This document shows, piece by piece, positions 8,170-47,178 of a stretch of DNA of 64,000 nt. The notes under the pieces were generated by a model that was not told the origin of the DNA, made no database searches, and saw nothing but the letters and a program-made list of their open reading frames with translations. Every line of letters begins with the position of its first letter. The first letter of the stretch is position 1. Source of the stretch: a virus; the IMG/VR virus record IMGVR_UViG_3300043427_003610, positions 1 to 64,000 of that record. One strand, given 5' to 3'. A program made the position numbers and the translations under genes.

Positions 8170-9744
8170 ATGAGCGCATTGTACTTACACGACGAATTGT
8201 CTGACATCAGCCTTGGGACGAACAACACCAACAAGGCTGGGGCGGCCGTTGCGTGGCGTGCGCGTGTGGCCAAGCCGACCCCGGAGACTACGGCGAATGT
8301 GACCGCTACGGTCGCGTCGGTAACAGGACCCACGAACGGTCTGGAGACGGGCAACCCGGTCAACGAGTGGATCAGTGCTCCGTTGGCGGCCGCGGTGACG
8401 ATCAGCGGTACGATCAGGTTCAATATGTGCGCGCGCGAATCAAACGCCATGGCTAACGCTGGCGTGGGTGTCGTGGTGCAGCGACTCAACAACGTAGGAA
8501 CCGTGGTCTCGACAATTGTCGACTCGGTTCAAGGAACGGAGCTAGGTACCACTAATGCCCGTCGCACCTGGACGGCGACGCCAACCAGCACCGCGATGGC
8601 GGTGGGCGATCGATTCCGTATTCGCGTGTATTTCGACGACGCTGGTGGTACCATGGTTACGGGGTACACCCTAACACTGACGTACGACGGGACCAACGCA
8701 GCAATCGGCGATTCCAACGTGGACTTTGCCGAAACGCTCTCGTTCATGTCGGGGTCATCAGGCGGCCTTGGGGCGTTTACACCGGTGACCACAGGCATTC
8801 CCACTGGGCGAATTATTAATACGGTCGCTTATGCCAATAATCTGTTTGTTGCAACGGCGACGAATTTTACTCAGCAGACTTCAGTATACACTGCGTCAGA
8901 CGTCGCTGGTCCGTGGTCTCTTGTTGGCACACTTCCAACAGTTAACTCGGTAGCACGCCTTAAGTATGTAAACAATATTTGGATCGCATTGGCTGGGGGG
9001 TTATATACCGCAACCAACCTAAGCGGCCCATGGACAGACAGAACTCCGGCAGACGCAAACAACAGTGAAGATTTTGTGTTCGAGAATAATCAGTATGTGC
9101 TGGTAGGAGCGAGTTCTGGTGTAGGAGCGGTATGGTTCACTTCAGACATACTGCAACCGTCCTGGACGCGGACCACGATTGCGGGTACGAGCATACTGGC
9201 GGGCATCGCCTATGGCGACGGACTATGGGCTACCTGCGATTCCTCAGGTGCTTCCGGCAAGGTGTACACCGCAGCGTCTCCGTCTGGCCCATGGACTCAA
9301 CGTACGAGCCCGACAGCCAACTACACGTCAATGTACTATAGCAACGGCTATTGGGCTGCCGGTACTGGATCGTTGGGTGTGGTATATACTACCAATCCTA
9401 CAGGTACATGGACTCTTACAGGCTCCACTGAATTTGACGGCCTTTCTACTGACGTGATTGTCTATAGTGCAAGTACCGGTTTTTGGTATACAACCGCTGG
9501 TTCACGCTTAGCTTGCACCAGCAATTTTACCAGTTGGACGTTAATTGACAATGTGCTTTCAGGGAGTAGCCTGGAAGGCATCGCCTTGTATGATACGGGC
9601 ATTTTTGTAGGCGGGCAAAGCGGAAAGTCTGCTTACGCTCCGCTGTCATCGCCGTTGTTTCTTACAGACGTGATCAGTTCAATTACTGACCAAGGCGCAA
9701 GTGTTACGGAACTGACTGCGTGGACTAGCCGAGGGAACGGTTAA
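8170..9744 (+). CDS. Virion accessory protein: N-terminal jelly-roll-like domain plus W-repeat beta-propeller
   Basis: Repeated VYTA..(G/S)PW(T/S) blades; lower GC in the propeller part. Confidence 0.65.
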   Translation: MSALYLHDELSDISLGTNNTNKAGAAVAWRARVAKPTPETTANVTATVASVTGPTNGLETGNPVNEWISAPLAAAVTISGTIRFNMCARESNAMANAGVGVVVQRLNNVGTVVSTIVDSVQGTELGTTNARRTWTATPTSTAMAVGDRFRIRVYFDDAGGTMVTGYTLTLTYDGTNAAIGDSNVDFAETLSFMSGSSGGLGAFTPVTTGIPTGRIINTVAYANNLFVATATNFTQQTSVYTASDVAGPWSLVGTLPTVNSVARLKYVNNIWIALAGGLYTATNLSGPWTDRTPADANNSEDFVFENNQYVLVGASSGVGAVWFTSDILQPSWTRTTIAGTSILAGIAYGDGLWATCDSSGASGKVYTAASPSGPWTQRTSPTANYTSMYYSNGYWAAGTGSLGVVYTTNPTGTWTLTGSTEFDGLSTDVIVYSASTGFWYTTAGSRLACTSNFTSWTLIDNVLSGSSLEGIALYDTGIFVGGQSGKSAYAPLSSPLFLTDVISSITDQGASVTELTAWTSRGNG

Positions 9745-18556: not shown

Positions 18557-18806
18557 TCCTCGCCGAGCGGTGATTGCCGTTACGATGGTATGGCAGCGGC
18601 AGGAGGATGGGTGCTGGGATCGGTACCTGATTCGTGAGCAGCGTAACACCTCGCCCCATCTTGAGAAGCTGATTAGTGTAAAAACGCACGTCCCGGTGTG
18701 TATGGCGTGTCTCAGCAACGATGTCGTTGTAGTCGAATCGATTAAGTATCCGGACGGTGAGCTGATTTGTCACGAGTGTGGCGTCCGATACGGCTTTCTG
18801 CTGTAA
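18543..18806 (+). CDS. Zn-ribbon protein
   Basis: CMAC...CHEC. Confidence 0.55.
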   Translation: MSRFDPRRAVIAVTMVWQRQEDGCWDRYLIREQRNTSPHLEKLISVKTHVPVCMACLSNDVVVVESIKYPDGELICHECGVRYGFLL

Positions 18807-18829
18807 GAAATTCGCCCGTTTGGTCAATT
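18803..18829 (+). promoter_or_regulatory. Class I motif GTAAG-N15-GTCAATT
   Basis: 11 nt upstream of ATG 18841; no SD sequence. Confidence 0.75.
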
Positions 18830-19546: not shown

Positions 19547-19854
19547 CCGCCGTTGTCGTGCTTGTTGTGCTTCTCGCCTGCATTGGGTATGCGACGTACG
19601 CCAGCTATAGCAAGGCGCCAGAGCCTTTGTTCCCGCCGAAGATCCCGTCCGGCGGTGGCGGCGGCGGCGGAGAGCCGGACGATCGTCCTGAGGCTGTCGA
19701 GGCGTGGCAGCTCGCCGGGACGGTGCACCTGGTCGAGGAGCCGGTAACCGATCCGGTCCGGAAGCCGAAGGCCGTGAAGAAGGCAGCCAAGGCAACTACG
19801 GGGAAGGCCAAGAAGCGGAGCACGAAGAAGCCGCAGGCCCGCCGCAAGCGGTGA
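19543..19854 (+). CDS. Membrane-anchored protein with Lys-rich tail
   Basis: N-terminal TM segment; KKAAKATTGKAKKR. Confidence 0.6.
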   Translation: MTAVVVLVVLLACIGYATYASYSKAPEPLFPPKIPSGGGGGGGEPDDRPEAVEAWQLAGTVHLVEEPVTDPVRKPKAVKKAAKATTGKAKKRSTKKPQARRKR

Positions 19855-20168
19855 TCCGGGACCTGGCTGGGCACGTCGCCAGGGAAGATCCGCGACAAAT
19901 ACCCGCCCGTACGCGACAAATAGTACTCGATCGCGACAATAATCAGTGTCAGCTATGTGGTACTGGCGGTGAAAACCGCCTCCAGCTCCACCACATCGAG
20001 TACCGCTCACAGGGCGGCACTCATGCGCCAGAAAACCTTGTCACTCTCTGCTTCGAATGTCATCAAAAGGTCCACCTTGGACGGGCCGACATCGTCCTCC
20101 TACAAACTTCGCCCGGCGTATGGGCGGCGTTCCCAAATTCACCCCGCCTACCGAGAACTACTTCATGA
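19851..20168 (+). CDS. HNH endonuclease
   Basis: VLDRDNNQCQLCG...LHHI...GG...NLVTLCFECHQKVH. Confidence 0.9.
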   Translation: MIRDLAGHVAREDPRQIPARTRQIVLDRDNNQCQLCGTGGENRLQLHHIEYRSQGGTHAPENLVTLCFECHQKVHLGRADIVLLQTSPGVWAAFPNSPRLPRTTS

Positions 20169-20632: not shown

Positions 20633-21270
20633 GGGTAATCGGTCTGGCTGGTCGGTCGGGGGTGGGCAAGTCGACTCTGTCGACTACCTATCTCCGACCG
20701 CTTGGCTTTATGGAAGTGGCCCTGGCCGACGAGATCAAGATCCGAGCGATCGCAACCGGCGTTGCAACGTACGAGCAGGTCTTCGTTGGCAGTAAGCCGC
20801 CGCATGTGCGAACGTGGTTGCAGGAAGAGGGCACGGAGCGCGGCCGCGACGTGTTCGGTCAGGACGTCTGGGTGCGGGCGCTGCTTGCTCGGATGCGGAA
20901 GATCAGCGAGTCCTCGGACGTCAGGAACTTCGTTGTTACGGATGTTCGGTTCGTAAACGAGGTGCGCGGCATTCGGGCCGCTGGCGGCATTGTGCTGCGG
21001 GTCGATGCGCCGCGCCGAAATGCCAACAACGGCATGACGGCCGAGCAGCGACTCCACCCGTCCGAGACGGATCTGGATCAGCTCGCCGTGACTGATTACG
21101 ACGGCGTCATTCGGAATGACCCGGAGGACGCGGATACCGTTGGGTGGCAGATCCACGCCCACCTGTTCTACAACAATTTCGTTCGCGCGCCGTATGGTGG
21201 GAAGCAGCTGAGCACCGAGCAGCAGCAGGCGCTTATCAAGGACATGTTGCCGTATCTGCAACGTGCCTAA
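20629..21270 (+). CDS. Deoxynucleoside monophosphate kinase (T4 gp1-like)
   Basis: IGLAGRSGVGKST, LADEIK, LQEEGTERGR, VVTDVRFVNE, HPSE. Confidence 0.88.
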   Translation: MRVIGLAGRSGVGKSTLSTTYLRPLGFMEVALADEIKIRAIATGVATYEQVFVGSKPPHVRTWLQEEGTERGRDVFGQDVWVRALLARMRKISESSDVRNFVVTDVRFVNEVRGIRAAGGIVLRVDAPRRNANNGMTAEQRLHPSETDLDQLAVTDYDGVIRNDPEDADTVGWQIHAHLFYNNFVRAPYGGKQLSTEQQQALIKDMLPYLQRA

Positions 21271-21913
21271 GCGCAAGATTGGGAAGCGCCGAAAGCAGTG
21301 GGTGCCGAAGACTCCAAAGCGACGGGCCAAGGGTCCGCGTCGCCGCGAGCGGGCTCCGATCGCCCCGGTGGGGCAGGTCGAGCGGGTGCTCGCGCTGGAC
21401 TCCAGCTCTAGGGCGTGCGGCTGGTCGGTGATGGACGATGGGGTGCTGGTCGCCCACGGCTGCTACATACAGAAGGGCCCCGGCCACGGCGAGCGACTGA
21501 TGCGGTTCCGGTTGTGGCTGCTCGACATGCTCCGCGAGTGGCAGCCCCGCCTGCTGATCTACGAGGCACCCTACCAAGGCCGAATGAAGAACACCTTCGG
21601 CATCCTCTCGCGCTACGTCGGCGCGATTGAGTCCGCCCACTTTGAGCACTACGAGCGCGAAATCGAGAAGTCCGAGTCGGTTCCCGCGCACCTGGTCAAG
21701 AAGGCCATTGGGGCCCGGAAGGGCGAGAATCACGAGGCCAACAAGAAGATCGTCGTGCTGCTGGTCAACGAGACGTTCGGACTCGGCCTCAAGTTCAAGG
21801 CGAACGATACCACTAAGAAGGTCTCGCAGGATGACGAGGCGGACGCTATCGCGCTGAACTGGGCGTGGCATCGGCTCAACCGAGAGGCTGATGTGATCCC
21901 GGAGGCAGCGTAA
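21263..21913 (+). CDS. ruvC: RuvC-like Holliday junction resolvase
   Basis: VLALDSSSRACGWSV, IYEAPY, DDEADAIAL. Confidence 0.8.
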   Translation: MPKRKIGKRRKQWVPKTPKRRAKGPRRRERAPIAPVGQVERVLALDSSSRACGWSVMDDGVLVAHGCYIQKGPGHGERLMRFRLWLLDMLREWQPRLLIYEAPYQGRMKNTFGILSRYVGAIESAHFEHYEREIEKSESVPAHLVKKAIGARKGENHEANKKIVVLLVNETFGLGLKFKANDTTKKVSQDDEADAIALNWAWHRLNREADVIPEAA

Positions 21914-22174
21914 ATGGAAGAAGATCTTCTGAACCGGATTTCGGTCGAGCAGCTGCTGGTGACTTTGTCCGACGAGCACCGCCTGGTCCTGGAGCTGGTC
22001 TTCGGGCTTAGGTATCCGCCCGACTGGCCCTGGCCCTACGTGGTCTGGCCGCCCACCTACGCCGCCATTGGCTGGTACGTAGGCCACAAAATGCGCGGTA
22101 AGCCGCTGTCCGAGGCCGCGATCCGCTATATCCGCACCGCCGCCCTCAGAAAACTGGCAGAAAACCACAAGTAG
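21914..22174 (+). CDS. Stand-alone sigma70 region 4-like protein
   Basis: LLVTLSDEHRLVLELVFGL...PTYAAIG...LSEAAIRYIRTAALRKL matches the region 4 HTH consensus. Confidence 0.75.
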   Translation: MEEDLLNRISVEQLLVTLSDEHRLVLELVFGLRYPPDWPWPYVVWPPTYAAIGWYVGHKMRGKPLSEAAIRYIRTAALRKLAENHK

Positions 22175-22216
22175 TTCCCGCAAACCGACGAAAATCGCTC
22201 CCCAGCTCCTGTTTTT

Positions 22217-22245
22217 CGTCTGAAATCGGGTTCGAACGACCTAGT
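22217..22245 (+). promoter_or_regulatory. Class II motif variant CGTCT-N15-CGACCTAGT
   Basis: Between the sigma4 and sigma2 genes; one mismatch in the -10 box. Confidence 0.45.
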
Positions 22246-22276
22246 AACGGGCCGCAGTGCGGTTCACGGGAGCACC

Positions 22277-22669
22277 ATGACCAACGAAGAGTTCGAGAAC
22301 ATCTACCTACCGAAGTACGACCTGACCATTCGGGCGATCGCCAGGAAGCTGGCGCAGACCAATGACACCTTGGCCGAAGACCTCTATCAGGAGGGGCTGA
22401 TCGCGCTCTGGAACTGCACGCCGAACCGGGCCCGGGACAACCCCGACGCCTACATCCGGCAGTCCCTGAAGTTCCGAATGATCGATTACCTGCGGAAGGA
22501 GCGGATCTACAACACGGAGTCGCTTGAGGTCCGCCTGGAGCGCGGGGACCAGCTGGTGGTGGACGCCGCCGGTGGGTTCGACCTCGTCTCGTCGCCCGGA
22601 GCCTTGCATATGCGCCGCAACGATGCTGGCAAGGAGCCGCGGCGGTTCTACGAAGAGGAGGAGGAGTAA
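22277..22669 (+). CDS. Stand-alone sigma70 region 2-like protein
   Basis: YDLTIRAIARKL...AEDLYQEGLIALW...AYIRQSLKFRMIDYLRKE; ends without region 4. Confidence 0.85.
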   Translation: MTNEEFENIYLPKYDLTIRAIARKLAQTNDTLAEDLYQEGLIALWNCTPNRARDNPDAYIRQSLKFRMIDYLRKERIYNTESLEVRLERGDQLVVDAAGGFDLVSSPGALHMRRNDAGKEPRRFYEEEEE

Positions 22670-23754
22670 TGCCCCGCGGTGGGAAGGTGCTGCGCGAGCC
22701 GTTCGTATACGAGGTAGGGAAGGACATCTCACCTGAGCGCTACCAGGAGGCGATTGAGAAGATCGCGGACTGGTTTGCCCAGACCAGGAACACGAAGGAG
22801 CCGGTGGCAGCGGCAAAGTATTACCTCGACTGCTGCCTCAAGGGTGTGACGGCGTCCGATGGCAAGTCCAAGTGGTTTGCCATGGCCACGTCAACCCTGG
22901 CGTCCCGGGTGCGGTCGGCCTGCCGGTTCGACATCGAGACGATGCAGCCGCTGGTTACGGCAGACGAGAAGAAAAAGGCCAAGAAGGTTAGGGAGAAGGA
23001 GCGGGAGAAGGCCAAGAAGGAGGCTGAGAAGGTCGACGCAAACCTGCCCGATGAATACCGGAAGAAGGTGGCCGGAGAGGCGACCTATGGGGACGACCCG
23101 TTGGTCTTCTTCACGTCGGCGGAGCTGGAGCGCCGCGAGCGCCTCAAGGACGCCTACCTGAAGGACTTTCCTCAGCTGCGGTCGGTCGCTTCGGAATCGA
23201 AGCTGGACATGCTGCTCGACCTGACCCTGCTGCTGGACCGCATCCGGTTCCGCCAGGCGAAGGACACGAAGGGGAAGACCGAGGAGTTCCAGATTCAGCA
23301 GCTCACGAAGCAGATCGTGGAGCTGGAAAAGGCCCTCAACATCCACCCGGACCAGCTGGCCAAGCAGCAGAAAGAGAAGGAGGGCGGCACGATCGGCGAG
23401 GCCGTGCGCCGCTTGGAGGAGACCAACGCGATCGAGTTGCGGGAGCGGTGGCTGGCGGAGGAGCTGCTGGTCTTGTTCCAGATGTATCACACCCCGAGCC
23501 CCCGGTCGAACATGGGCGGCTATCAGCTGGACGAGGTCGGGCTGTTTGGGGCCACGCGGTGCCGCACCTGCAGCTGTGTCAAATGCGGGACGAAGAACTA
23601 CGCCGGGCTCGGCGTGGAAGAGATCGAAGAATGGCTCAAGACCAAGGGGTTCCTGAAGCCCGTGGTTGAGGAGCCCACTTGGGACGCGAATGCTGACGAT
23701 CAAGGACTGGACGAGACCACTCTCGGAGACGCTGAAGACCCCGCAGACGGCTGA
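22669..23754 (+). CDS. Hypothetical protein, terminase small subunit candidate
   Basis: Immediately upstream of TerL; helical, with a CRTCSCVKC motif. Confidence 0.5.
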   Translation: MPRGGKVLREPFVYEVGKDISPERYQEAIEKIADWFAQTRNTKEPVAAAKYYLDCCLKGVTASDGKSKWFAMATSTLASRVRSACRFDIETMQPLVTADEKKKAKKVREKEREKAKKEAEKVDANLPDEYRKKVAGEATYGDDPLVFFTSAELERRERLKDAYLKDFPQLRSVASESKLDMLLDLTLLLDRIRFRQAKDTKGKTEEFQIQQLTKQIVELEKALNIHPDQLAKQQKEKEGGTIGEAVRRLEETNAIELRERWLAEELLVLFQMYHTPSPRSNMGGYQLDEVGLFGATRCRTCSCVKCGTKNYAGLGVEEIEEWLKTKGFLKPVVEEPTWDANADDQGLDETTLGDAEDPADG

Positions 23755-25798
23755 ACAGGCGATCGAAGCAGAACGCCTGTACAAGCCGCTTCTGCGGTGG
23801 CGCCAGTGGCCTGACGTTGCACTCAGGTCACTGAGCGGCATCTTCATTCCCCCGCATCAGCGCATCATGCTGTATGCGGCCCACCTGGGTGCGCCGACCA
23901 CGGTCTATGTATGCAGCCGTGGAACGTCCAAGTCCGCCGTGGTGGACGTGCTGTACGCCTCCTATCGAGCGCTGTTCTTCCCCAAGCGTAAGGGCGTCAC
24001 TCTGTCCGCGGGCGGCTTCCGCGGCGGGCAGCTGCTGTACGACGACGCGGAGAAGTGGATCAACGGCGCCTGGTTCGATCAGGAGTCTGGTCTGGAGTTC
24101 ATTCGCAACTCCGTGGTCTACGACAAGGTCGTGCTTCGCCAGCAGAACTACTGGCGGATCGACTTTACGTCTGCGTCGCACCTGATGACGGTTCCGACTA
24201 ATGACCCGGAAAAGATCCGAGGCATCCGCGGCAACGACCTATACGTCGACGAGGCTAACTTCACCGACCTCGAGTTGATGAGCAAGGTCGCTGACTCGTT
24301 CTTGAACGTGCTCGGCGACTTCAAGACGGGCGGCGAAAACGCGGCCACGAACTCGGTGTTCTACACCACGACGATCGACTACGGCTGGCGCGATTTCCAA
24401 AAGACGGCCACCGCGGCGTACGAGGGCATGGCCCGCGACCACGCTGCGTTGCTGGCGGTGCGCAAGGGGGACGAGACGCTGTACGAGGAGTTCCGTCGGA
24501 AGGGCCTCCTCCAGAGCGTCTACGTGTCGTTCGACTATACCGACACCATCGTGCGGCGGCGCATCGAGACGCGGGACGGCCGGGCCTTGGAGATGGTGTG
24601 GCCGGACCAGACGCGCCGATTCAAGCGGGATATCCGCGGCCTGCCGTTCACCGTGCGTGGGGAGAACGGACGCTTTCAGATGCAGGGCGTCCCGATCGAA
24701 ATCATCACGACGTATCCGATCAACCGGAACGTCGAAGACAAGCTGCTGACTGGCGAGACGCCGGAGGCGATCTGGCTGGCCGAGCAGCGAAACGTGGTGG
24801 ACACCTCGACCGGTGACGTCTACCCGCACCACACCGTAGATGCGGCTTCGTGCAAAGGCGCCCGGTATGTGATTGCCCACGAAGACTGTGGCTCGGAGTG
24901 GAAGAAGAAGTTCCCCGACCCGGACACGCACTTCGTTCCGCCCGTGATGTGGAGCTGCTCTGATCCGTGCGTGCTTGGCGTCGACTACGCGCCTGGCAGC
25001 CGGGACTTCTCCGCGTTCGTGGTGATCCGCGTGGGCCAGCTCGCCGACGGCGAGTTCAACCCGGTGACCGGTCTGGGGCGCACGCCCTGGTCCAATGTGA
25101 TTTGGGCCGAGCAGCACCGGATGACCAGTCACGCCGATGTGGCGAACAAGATCCGGGAGTTCAAGGACCGGTACAACCTGGTCTTCTACCATGACCCGCA
25201 CGAGAACGACACCTGGAAGCTGTGCCGGGCGGTCGGCCTCGACATGCGCGGTGGTGGCTCCGGCGTCCGTGACGAGCTGGTGCACATCAATAAGCAGGAC
25301 CTGGGTCCGGAAGAGTACCGGATATACGATCCGCTTGACCCGGACGAGCGGGTGCAGGCGTTTGCGACCGCCTCGCGATCGCTGCCGATGCTGGACGCAA
25401 TCTACCCGTCGGACCAGCTGAACGACCGCCTGGTCGAGTTCACGCTCGGCCAGATGACCCAGAAGCTGCTCTACATCCCGAAGGATATCCCGGAATCCGA
25501 GCGGCCGTTCGACGTCAAGATCGACGTCGGCTATAACGGTGCGAAGATCCTGGCGCACCAGCTTCGGGCCCTGCAGCAGAAGCCCACCAAGAATTTTCGG
25601 CAGTTCTTCATGAAAGGCGACACCGAGCAGGCGTCGAACAAGAAGGACCTGTGGGCCGCGTTCATCTATGCGGCCAAGCAGATGCGCGCCCACGTGATTC
25701 GGCAGCGCATGATCGAAGACACTCCACCGCCGCTCGGGGCGGTGGTCACCCGTATCGGAGGAAGACCCAATGGAAGATCGCGATTCAGTCTCTACTAA
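23690..25798 (+). CDS. terL: Terminase large subunit
   Basis: CSRGTSKS (Walker A), IRGIRGNDLYVDEA (Walker B), VLGVDYA nuclease motif, KKDLWAA. Confidence 0.88.
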   Translation: MLTIKDWTRPLSETLKTPQTAEQAIEAERLYKPLLRWRQWPDVALRSLSGIFIPPHQRIMLYAAHLGAPTTVYVCSRGTSKSAVVDVLYASYRALFFPKRKGVTLSAGGFRGGQLLYDDAEKWINGAWFDQESGLEFIRNSVVYDKVVLRQQNYWRIDFTSASHLMTVPTNDPEKIRGIRGNDLYVDEANFTDLELMSKVADSFLNVLGDFKTGGENAATNSVFYTTTIDYGWRDFQKTATAAYEGMARDHAALLAVRKGDETLYEEFRRKGLLQSVYVSFDYTDTIVRRRIETRDGRALEMVWPDQTRRFKRDIRGLPFTVRGENGRFQMQGVPIEIITTYPINRNVEDKLLTGETPEAIWLAEQRNVVDTSTGDVYPHHTVDAASCKGARYVIAHEDCGSEWKKKFPDPDTHFVPPVMWSCSDPCVLGVDYAPGSRDFSAFVVIRVGQLADGEFNPVTGLGRTPWSNVIWAEQHRMTSHADVANKIREFKDRYNLVFYHDPHENDTWKLCRAVGLDMRGGGSGVRDELVHINKQDLGPEEYRIYDPLDPDERVQAFATASRSLPMLDAIYPSDQLNDRLVEFTLGQMTQKLLYIPKDIPESERPFDVKIDVGYNGAKILAHQLRALQQKPTKNFRQFFMKGDTEQASNKKDLWAAFIYAAKQMRAHVIRQRMIEDTPPPLGAVVTRIGGRPNGRSRFSLY

Positions 25799-47135: not shown

Positions 47136-47178
47136 CGAACAGCTCCCCGTGACTCGACTTATTAGAGTCACGGGGAGT
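47136..47178 (+). promoter_or_regulatory. 14-bp hairpin with class II box CGACTTATT (47155-47163) in its loop
   Basis: GCTCCCCGTGACTC-GACTTATTA-GAGTCACGGGGAGT. Confidence 0.65.

Follow-up and report, generated by a model that had tools for sequence, protein, structure and literature searches.

The DNA analysed here, referred to as the window, comprises the first 64 kb of the 84,553-base-pair virus record IMGVR_UViG_3300043427_003610 in IMG/VR, which is estimated to be 60% complete. Within it we identified two adjacent open reading frames (ORFs) that share one reading frame: ORF A, which encodes a stand-alone sigma region-4 domain, and ORF B, which encodes a stand-alone sigma region-2 domain. 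An earlier note on this DNA had proposed that they form a naturally split sigma factor. Both ORFs were found where that note had placed them, with the peptides it had quoted, including RYPPDWPWPYVVWPP and the EEEEE tail. It had also argued that the sigma4 gene lies upstream of the sigma2 gene and that the pair is not one frameshifted canonical sigma gene, and our analysis agrees. The locus contains the following features:

21914-22174, plus strand: ORF A, 86 amino acids, stand-alone sigma region-4 domain (Pfam match weak, AlphaFold2 fold clear)
22010-22054, plus strand: Pro/Trp-rich insertion RYPPDWPWPYVVWPP, residues 33–47 of ORF A, between helix 2 (region 4.1) and the helix-turn-helix
22172-22174, plus strand: TAG stop codon of ORF A, the sole in-frame stop between ORF A and ORF B
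22175-22276, plus strand: in-frame spacer of 102 nucleotides (nt), or 34 codons, separating ORF A and ORF B
22214-22245, plus strand: class II promoter-like element TTTCGTCT-N15-CGACCTAGT, 40 nt before the ORF B start
22277-22669, plus strand: ORF B, 130 amino acids, stand-alone sigma region-2 domain with a tail ending in EEEEE (Pfam match and structural model)

Domain identity of ORF A and ORF B

The earlier note had assigned ORF B to region 2 only, and this is what we found. ORF B matched Pfam Sigma70_r2 (PF04542) over profile positions 8–69 of 71 with an E value of 4.7e-11 (42.8 bits against a cut-off of 24), which makes it a member of this family, and no region-4 match was returned for it in Pfam. 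It also matched the N-terminal halves of several NCBIfam models of extracytoplasmic function (ECF) sigma factors, such as TIGR02937 (E 9.1e-8, positions 9–74 of 165). The ORF B model (predicted local distance difference test, pLDDT, 80.6) is composed of three long helices spanning residues 3–79, a short helix, a beta-hairpin (residues 92–104) and a disordered tail (residues 110–130); the short helix and the hairpin form an extension after region 2 that spans residues 83–104. The best Foldseek rows for this model were region-2 domains, including the SigE N-terminal domain (E 0.057, probability 1.00), SigH and sigma28, and the T4 gp55 open complex (7d7c_F) appeared at rank 6 (probability 0.89). 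A search of 5.8 billion clusters identified 62 homologues of 118–152 amino acids, of which 61 contained PF04542 and none a region-4 domain. The ORF B motifs resembling what we take to be regions 2.2 and 2.3–2.4 were invariant or nearly so across 28 sequences.

The assignment of ORF A to region 4, also made in the earlier note, was borne out by the predicted fold, whereas the Pfam sequence match stayed under the cut-off. Sigma70_r4 was matched over residues 14–31 only, with an E value of 0.0043 and 17 bits against a cut-off of 24.1. Weak matches to the same family were present in 16 of 22 close homologues (best E 0.0029) and in 5 of 66 wider relatives (best E 7.2e-6). The AlphaFold2 model of ORF A (pLDDT 93.7) adopts the four-helix fold of regions 4.1 and 4.2 with a helix-turn-helix (HTH), its helices spanning residues 2–15, 20–29, 49–60 and 67–85. 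An ordered 19-residue loop (residues 30–48) contains the Pro/Trp-rich stretch, which is itself ordered in the model (pLDDT 89–96) and has no secondary structure. In an alignment of 22 sequences, W38, W45, P46 and P47 of this insertion are invariant and P39 and W40 nearly so; residues S66, E67, A68, I70, R71 and Y72 of the recognition helix are likewise invariant. Weak AbrB matches in 8 of the 22 family members (best E 0.036) were taken as chance matches to the Pro/Trp stretch.

The homologues of ORF A form 30 clusters with lengths of 85–108 amino acids. Its family profile identified 73 representative clusters among 1.84 billion, 68 of them proteins of 66–168 amino acids. Two giant proteins (3096 and 1593 amino acids) matched at positions 30–62 only and were set aside as low-complexity.

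Comparison of the ORF A model (residues 1–86) with 48,161 solved chains using VIA-align placed sigma factors first: the first 26 of 50 rows were all sigma-factor entries (Z 9.6 to 7.2), which align with the model at their C-terminal domain over its four helices. Of these, T. aquaticus sigma-A residues 359–428 ranked first (Z 9.6, root mean square deviation 1.7 Å over 70 residues, 30% identity). LuxR-type HTHs, with Z up to 7.2, appeared from rank 27 only, and the HTH of a phage small terminase (4xvn_A) aligned with Z 6.9 over 52 residues. These last two likenesses would suit a reading in which the genes are independent of each other, ORF A being a small HTH regulator or packaging-site binder and ORF B acting alone, whether as a minimal sigma or by blocking host sigma binding as a decoy. 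However, sigma factors rank above the other HTHs and match all four helices, whereas the non-sigma HTH rows, save one exception at rank 47, align with ORF A from residues 4–19 on, so that LuxR-type HTHs mostly lack the first ORF A helix. We regard the domain identities of both ORFs as established.

Conserved pairing and fused relatives

Synteny in related phages bore out the pairing described in the earlier note. The sigma4 and sigma2 genes occur in the same order at all seven related loci for which ORFs were listed (L002, L003, L005, L007, L008, L009 and L010; L004 and L006 were not included), and the full order at each is RuvC-like gene, sigma4-like gene, sigma2-like gene, a gene encoding about 360 amino acids and a terminase-like gene. 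These loci represent five distinct sequences besides the window, with ORF B identity down to 56%, and we consider the adjacency of the two genes to be firmly conserved. Moreover, for 17 of the 30 sigma4-like clusters the longest contig is equal in length, to the base, to that of a sigma2-like cluster, an indirect sign that the two kinds of cluster share contigs.

The frame is shared in five of the six distinct loci, with in-frame spacers of 102, 102, 84, 24 and 36 nt; at L008 the sigma4-like and sigma2-like genes are out of frame. One stop separates the genes in the window, L003 and L009, two in L007 and four in L002/L005. Counting four different in-frame spacer lengths and the one locus that is out of frame, we put the chance probability of this at about 1 in 20, for loci that are related to one another. 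This pattern would fit descent from, or exchange with, a fused gene and is by itself not proof of read-through, although occasional read-through of the single TAG could give a fused product. The 102-nt spacer showed no significant RNA structure (z −0.33).

Logan contigs from four runs, each belonging to a different study (three with freshwater labels and one marine), cover the TAG at 22172-22174 with no difference and no indel. Because these contigs keep the stop and the related loci carry one to four stops, the split is not an assembly error. Differences inside both ORFs among these contigs fall on the third codon position in 12 of 14 cases, with one synonymous change of TTG to CTG and one R33K substitution, and both ORFs are therefore under purifying selection. 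The shared frame in five of six distinct loci and the single stop in three of the six could be taken to mean that the pair is the functionless remnant of a fused permuted sigma gene recently broken by a nonsense mutation. We consider this highly improbable given the predominance of third-position variants, the 62 and 30 homologous clusters of constant length that represent the split form, and the ORFs that remain intact in relatives despite two or four stops or a different frame. The ORF B start also retains its own ATG with a purine-rich stretch ahead of it.

Relatives in which the two domains are fused were identified by both searches. P0093 (250 amino acids) was the only longer protein from the ORF B search and carries sigma4, a linker and sigma2 in one chain; the ORF A profile search gave three more fused proteins, P0111, P0117 and P0133, and the lengths of these four range from 235 to 254 amino acids. 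P0147 (168 amino acids) also has sigma4 first and breaks off within the sigma2 part. In our summary count, there are three full-length single-chain relatives and a fourth that ends early. The fused forms consist of a sigma4-like domain, a linker of ∼40 residues, a sigma2-like domain and an acidic tail, and the linker, in which an RGPLR motif is shared, is rich in P, S, T, K and R. In P0133, residues 4–37 correspond to positions 96–129 of an NCBIfam SigE model and residues 123–193 to positions 2–72 of an ECF model; the domain matches thus stand in swapped order, which confirms the permutation. The fused forms were not found in IMG/VR. The earlier note had named one intact sigma in relatives as an observation that would tell against a split factor. 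Single-chain relatives do occur; their fusion follows the same permuted order and does not refute the split.

Because the relatives are fused with sigma4 followed by sigma2, the two genes are functionally linked. The reading of ORF A and ORF B as independent genes draws on their position just ahead of the terminase-like gene, and on the conserved class II element between them, which could mean different transcription units. Given the fused clusters and the adjacency at all seven loci, we regard it as quite unlikely. A broader proposition, namely that we are dealing with a natural circular permutation of sigma in a family that alternates between one chain and two genes, sometimes one in-frame stop apart, is put forward tentatively. 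The permuted fused forms and the in-frame arrangement with a single stop are the new and unexpected parts of this analysis.

Promoter-like motifs and gene setting

The genome supplies two sharply defined candidate promoter classes. The class I motif, GTAAG-N15-GTCAAT(T), occurs in 10 copies in the record, nine with N15 and one with N16, all oriented like the neighbouring genes. They are located at 936, 2320, 14170, 18803, 27829 and 33121 of the window and at 65859, 67723, 76616(-) and 80895(-) of the record. Nine copies lie in gaps between called genes, 38–64 nt before a called start, and the copy at 2320 lies inside ORF calls; the copy at 65859 is no more than about 50 nt from a start once the uncalled ORF at 65910 is included. 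The nearest copy upstream of the pair stands at the front of a run of genes whose last member is ORF A:

18803-18829, plus strand: class I promoter-like element GTAAG-N15-GTCAATT

In several class I copies the −10 half (GTCAATT) is located in the loop of a terminator-like hairpin followed by a T-run, and such hairpins look like a terminator and a promoter combined in one cassette. In G002, the record behind L003, the class I −35 half is kept (GTAAGGT; ∼11 copies read by eye) and is followed at the same spacing by a −10 half of (C/G)GAA(T/C), with examples on the reverse complement at 8450, 20325, 48395 and 50023. The sigma2 loop between helices 2 and 3 differs as well, being TPNRA in G002 versus QPRLA, and the −10 half and this loop may represent a candidate case of co-variation. 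The GTAAG half is kept in three phages with an identical ORF A recognition helix.

The class II motif is bipartite, TTTCGT(T/C)T-N15-CGACyTAnT, its upstream half having been read by eye in a subset of copies. The −10 block CGACyTAnT occurs 10 times forward and once in reverse in the record, with corresponding counts of 8 and 4 in G001 and 7 and 3 in G002. Its positions are 4476, 5022, 22237, 29584, 33195, 35384, 37369, 39425 and 47155 of the window and 66400 of the record. Ahead of the sigma2 gene, none of the five aligned loci departs from the CGACnTA core, even where the spacer measures 24–36 nt. At 47142-47178, the motif lies in a hairpin loop that is conserved in both related phage records. 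Neither class matches TTGACA/TATAAT, which we take to be the housekeeping layout. By the logic of ECF autoregulation, class II would be the first candidate promoter of the pair, and the sigma2 gene behind this element may be autoregulated. Class I, for its part, has a −10 element, sGTCAATT, similar to that of E. coli sigma-E, (T/C)GGTCAAAA (PMC1312014).

These motifs also bear on a division of labour like that of phage T4. Like gp55, ORF B would then set promoter specificity alone, by way of an extended −10 element, and ORF A, like gp33, would occupy the beta-flap and displace host region 4 with no reading of the −35 element. The long conserved class II block resembles an extended −10 element, the gp55 open complex is among the Foldseek rows of ORF B, and a review of T4 late transcription treats gp55 and gp33 as a split sigma and assigns no DNA reading to gp33 (PMC2988020). 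However, an upstream half is conserved in both motif classes at a constant spacing of 15 nt, and the three phages that share the recognition helix have retained the class I GTAAG half. ORF A, moreover, has a true region-4 fold with a complete HTH and an invariant recognition helix, which gp33, as described, has not (PMC2988020). We consider the T4-like arrangement unlikely.

The pair is flanked by the following genes:

21263-21913, plus strand: RuvC-like gene, its stop directly abutting the ORF A start
22669-23754, plus strand: ORF of 361 amino acids, its ATG overlapping the ORF B stop (TAATG), in the same position at all seven related loci examined
23666-25798: terminase-like gene, following the 361-residue ORF

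Genes lie on the plus strand until about 72.8 kb of the record. Upstream of the pair are a primase-helicase, a DNA polymerase, a deoxynucleoside monophosphate kinase and the RuvC-like gene, and downstream is the terminase-like gene; the pair thus sits between the replication/recombination and packaging genes, at the junction where the earlier note had located it. The 361-residue ORF had no match in Pfam, PHROG or NCBIfam. It shows a coiled-coil-like middle and a C-terminal CxxC...CxxC motif, and the Atlas gives a weak lead only, to YonG-like phage protein clusters (score 0.89). The overlap of ATG and stop indicates that it may be translationally coupled to ORF B, and its position suggests a candidate small terminase subunit. 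Used as scan queries, the 361-residue protein and the terminase alignment returned the same three virus records and no others.

Elsewhere in the window, two small HTH ORFs, at 1812-1994 and 1507-1815, are possible early regulators. The first (60 amino acids) matches HTH_17 across the whole model at an E value of 2.6e-5, under the cut-off, and the second (102 amino acids) has a weak MarR_2 match. A second weak Sigma70_r4 match, at 1842-1904, falls inside the 60-residue ORF and was rejected as a second region-4 subunit; only one region-2 match is present in the whole record. A conserved small HNH-like ORF (CxxC...HH...CxxCH, motif read by eye) lies upstream of the kinase gene at 19704-20168, with copies in relatives at 70-387 of L005 and 232-486 of L009. 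ARAGORN found no tRNA in the window.

Searches of GenBank phages with tblastn gave no match for ORF A, ORF B or the terminase-like protein (50,697 records for the latter), and the DNA polymerase reached a best identity of 27% or less. The phage therefore belongs to a lineage with no isolated relative. Near-identical DNA was present in metagenome runs of 12 studies, with freshwater labels except for one marine study and one wastewater run with a small share; no RNA run was listed among the sequencing runs containing the stretch. A pattern scan of 185,579 species genomes found neither family and hence no prophage copy or host.

A putative two-part sigma factor and its known counterparts

Based on these results, we consider it probable that the phage encodes a two-part sigma factor, with ORF A and ORF B as its subunits, that redirects the host RNA polymerase. 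ORF B, as an ECF-like region 2, would dock on the host core polymerase at its beta-prime clamp helices and would recognise and open the −10 element. ORF A, as region 4, would dock on the beta-flap tip and read the −35 element through its invariant recognition helix, and both subunits would jointly steer the core polymerase to phage promoters. The family would then represent a circularly permuted sigma, encoded by two genes or made as a single chain whose disordered linker measures ∼40 residues. With sigma4 placed before sigma2, the RNA exit channel would hold no sigma2-to-sigma4 linker of the kind that threads it in canonical sigmas; part of that linker's role may fall to the conserved extension that follows sigma2.

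Several observations weigh against this two-subunit reading. It rests on domain identity, linkage and fusion, from which polymerase binding, promoter reading and the role of the extension are inferred. ORF A lies below the curated cut-offs of Pfam PF04545 and PF08281, and its Foldseek rows, although almost all region 4 with probabilities up to 1.00, have a weak best E value of 0.13. None of the ORF B Foldseek E values reached 0.001 (best 0.057). Profile searches of PDB sequences found nothing relevant for the ORF B family and no relevant match for ORF A, for which one chance beta-lactamase row appeared at E 0.54, and the ORF A profile found no canonical full-length sigma among the 1.84 billion representatives at E <= 0.001. 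The fused forms are known as proteins alone, and a gene-calling artefact is possible, though four clusters agree. With two motif classes that differ in both the −35 and the −10 element but one sigma pair, at least one class needs another reader. As the record is ∼60% complete, another sigma may be missing from it. The host, too, was not identified in the scan of 185,579 species genomes.

If both the fused and the split form are active on the polymerase, sigma function would not depend on a linker running through the active-site cleft and the RNA exit channel, and promoter escape would not need to displace a tethered linker. The split form would in that case constitute an AND gate, with the sigma4 gene closing the run of replication genes and the sigma2 gene placed behind its own conserved class II element. 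The same two domains, permuted and either fused or split, would be a clean natural experiment in an uncultured freshwater phage lineage, one that bears on the need for the sigma2–sigma4 linker and on how phages time late transcription. It could also be a natural source of orthogonal split sigmas for genetic circuits.

Our literature search, which covered few subscription journals and no supplements, turned up nothing on a permuted sigma, nor on phages that encode the sigma4 and sigma2 domains as a pair of separate genes. Split sigmas as such, and a gene order with region 4 first, are nevertheless already known from T4, SPO1, SigO-RsoA and Tn916. The statement in the earlier note that typical phage sigmas are single chains was overstated, T4 gp55/gp33 and SPO1 gp33/gp34 being described as phage two-subunit sigmas. 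It had also treated the reversed order as unusual, which goes too far given that in Tn916, as described, the region-4 gene sig7 likewise precedes the region-2-like sig8. The earlier interpretation as a whole is partly supported, and the observation on which it was built is confirmed.

Canonical ECF (group 4) factors such as E. coli sigma-E contain the same two domains, and ORF B matches ECF models. They consist, however, of one polypeptide in the order sigma2, linker and sigma4, whereas here sigma4 comes first, both in the two ORFs and in the fused relatives. With the order swapped, the linker topology cannot be the same. In Bacillus subtilis, SigO-RsoA (YvrI-YvrHa) is a two-subunit sigma with sigma2 and sigma4 functions on separate polypeptides, and the ECF reclassification paper that describes it states that phage and split sigmas of this kind were not captured (PMC7826278). 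SigO-RsoA is two-subunit, like the factor proposed here, but cellular rather than phage-borne. In SigO, a region-2-like N-terminal part is also retained, and RsoA contributes a region-2.3-like segment only, whereas the phage pair is divided cleanly at the domain boundary. No NCBIfam model of SigO-RsoA or Sig7-Sig8 matched our proteins, in a library that may not contain such models.

Closest in arrangement is Tn916, in which Sig7 (region-4-like, upstream gene) and Sig8 (RsoA-like) form a split sigma according to a preprint that also names SPO1 gp33/gp34, T4 gp55/gp33 and SigO-RsoA as split sigmas (bioRxiv 10.64898/2026.10.01.756105). As at our locus, the genes are adjacent on a mobile element with the region-4 gene upstream of the region-2-like gene; the Tn916 pair autoregulates from its own promoter, as the phage pair may do. 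Compared by description, Sig7 has 143 amino acids and Sig8 is not recognisable as a sigma, whereas ORF A is region 4 only (86 amino acids) and ORF B a full Pfam-recognised region 2. A Francisella paper proposes a further non-canonical split pair.

Among phages, the Bacillus phage SPO1 pair gp33-gp34 is described as a two-subunit factor for late genes and is, like our putative factor, both two-part and phage-borne. In T4, a small region-2-like protein binds the beta-prime coiled coil and a second small protein takes the place of region 4 on the beta-flap (PMC2988020). These are gp55 and gp33, which work with the sliding clamp gp45; as in our phage, both are small phage-encoded proteins, and the ORF B model resembles gp55 in the open complex. 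The T4 gp33 is a sigma4 mimic that does not read DNA, and late promoters have no −35 element; gp33 is not a region-4 homologue (PMC2988020), whereas ORF A has a real region-4 fold with an HTH. By tblastn, neither ORF A nor ORF B showed sequence similarity to T4, SPO1 or any other GenBank phage record. Two-subunit sigmas are few, comprising those of T4, SPO1, SigO-RsoA and, recently, Tn916, and in none of them, as described, are both halves plain recognisable sigma2 and sigma4 domains, as they are in the pair reported here.

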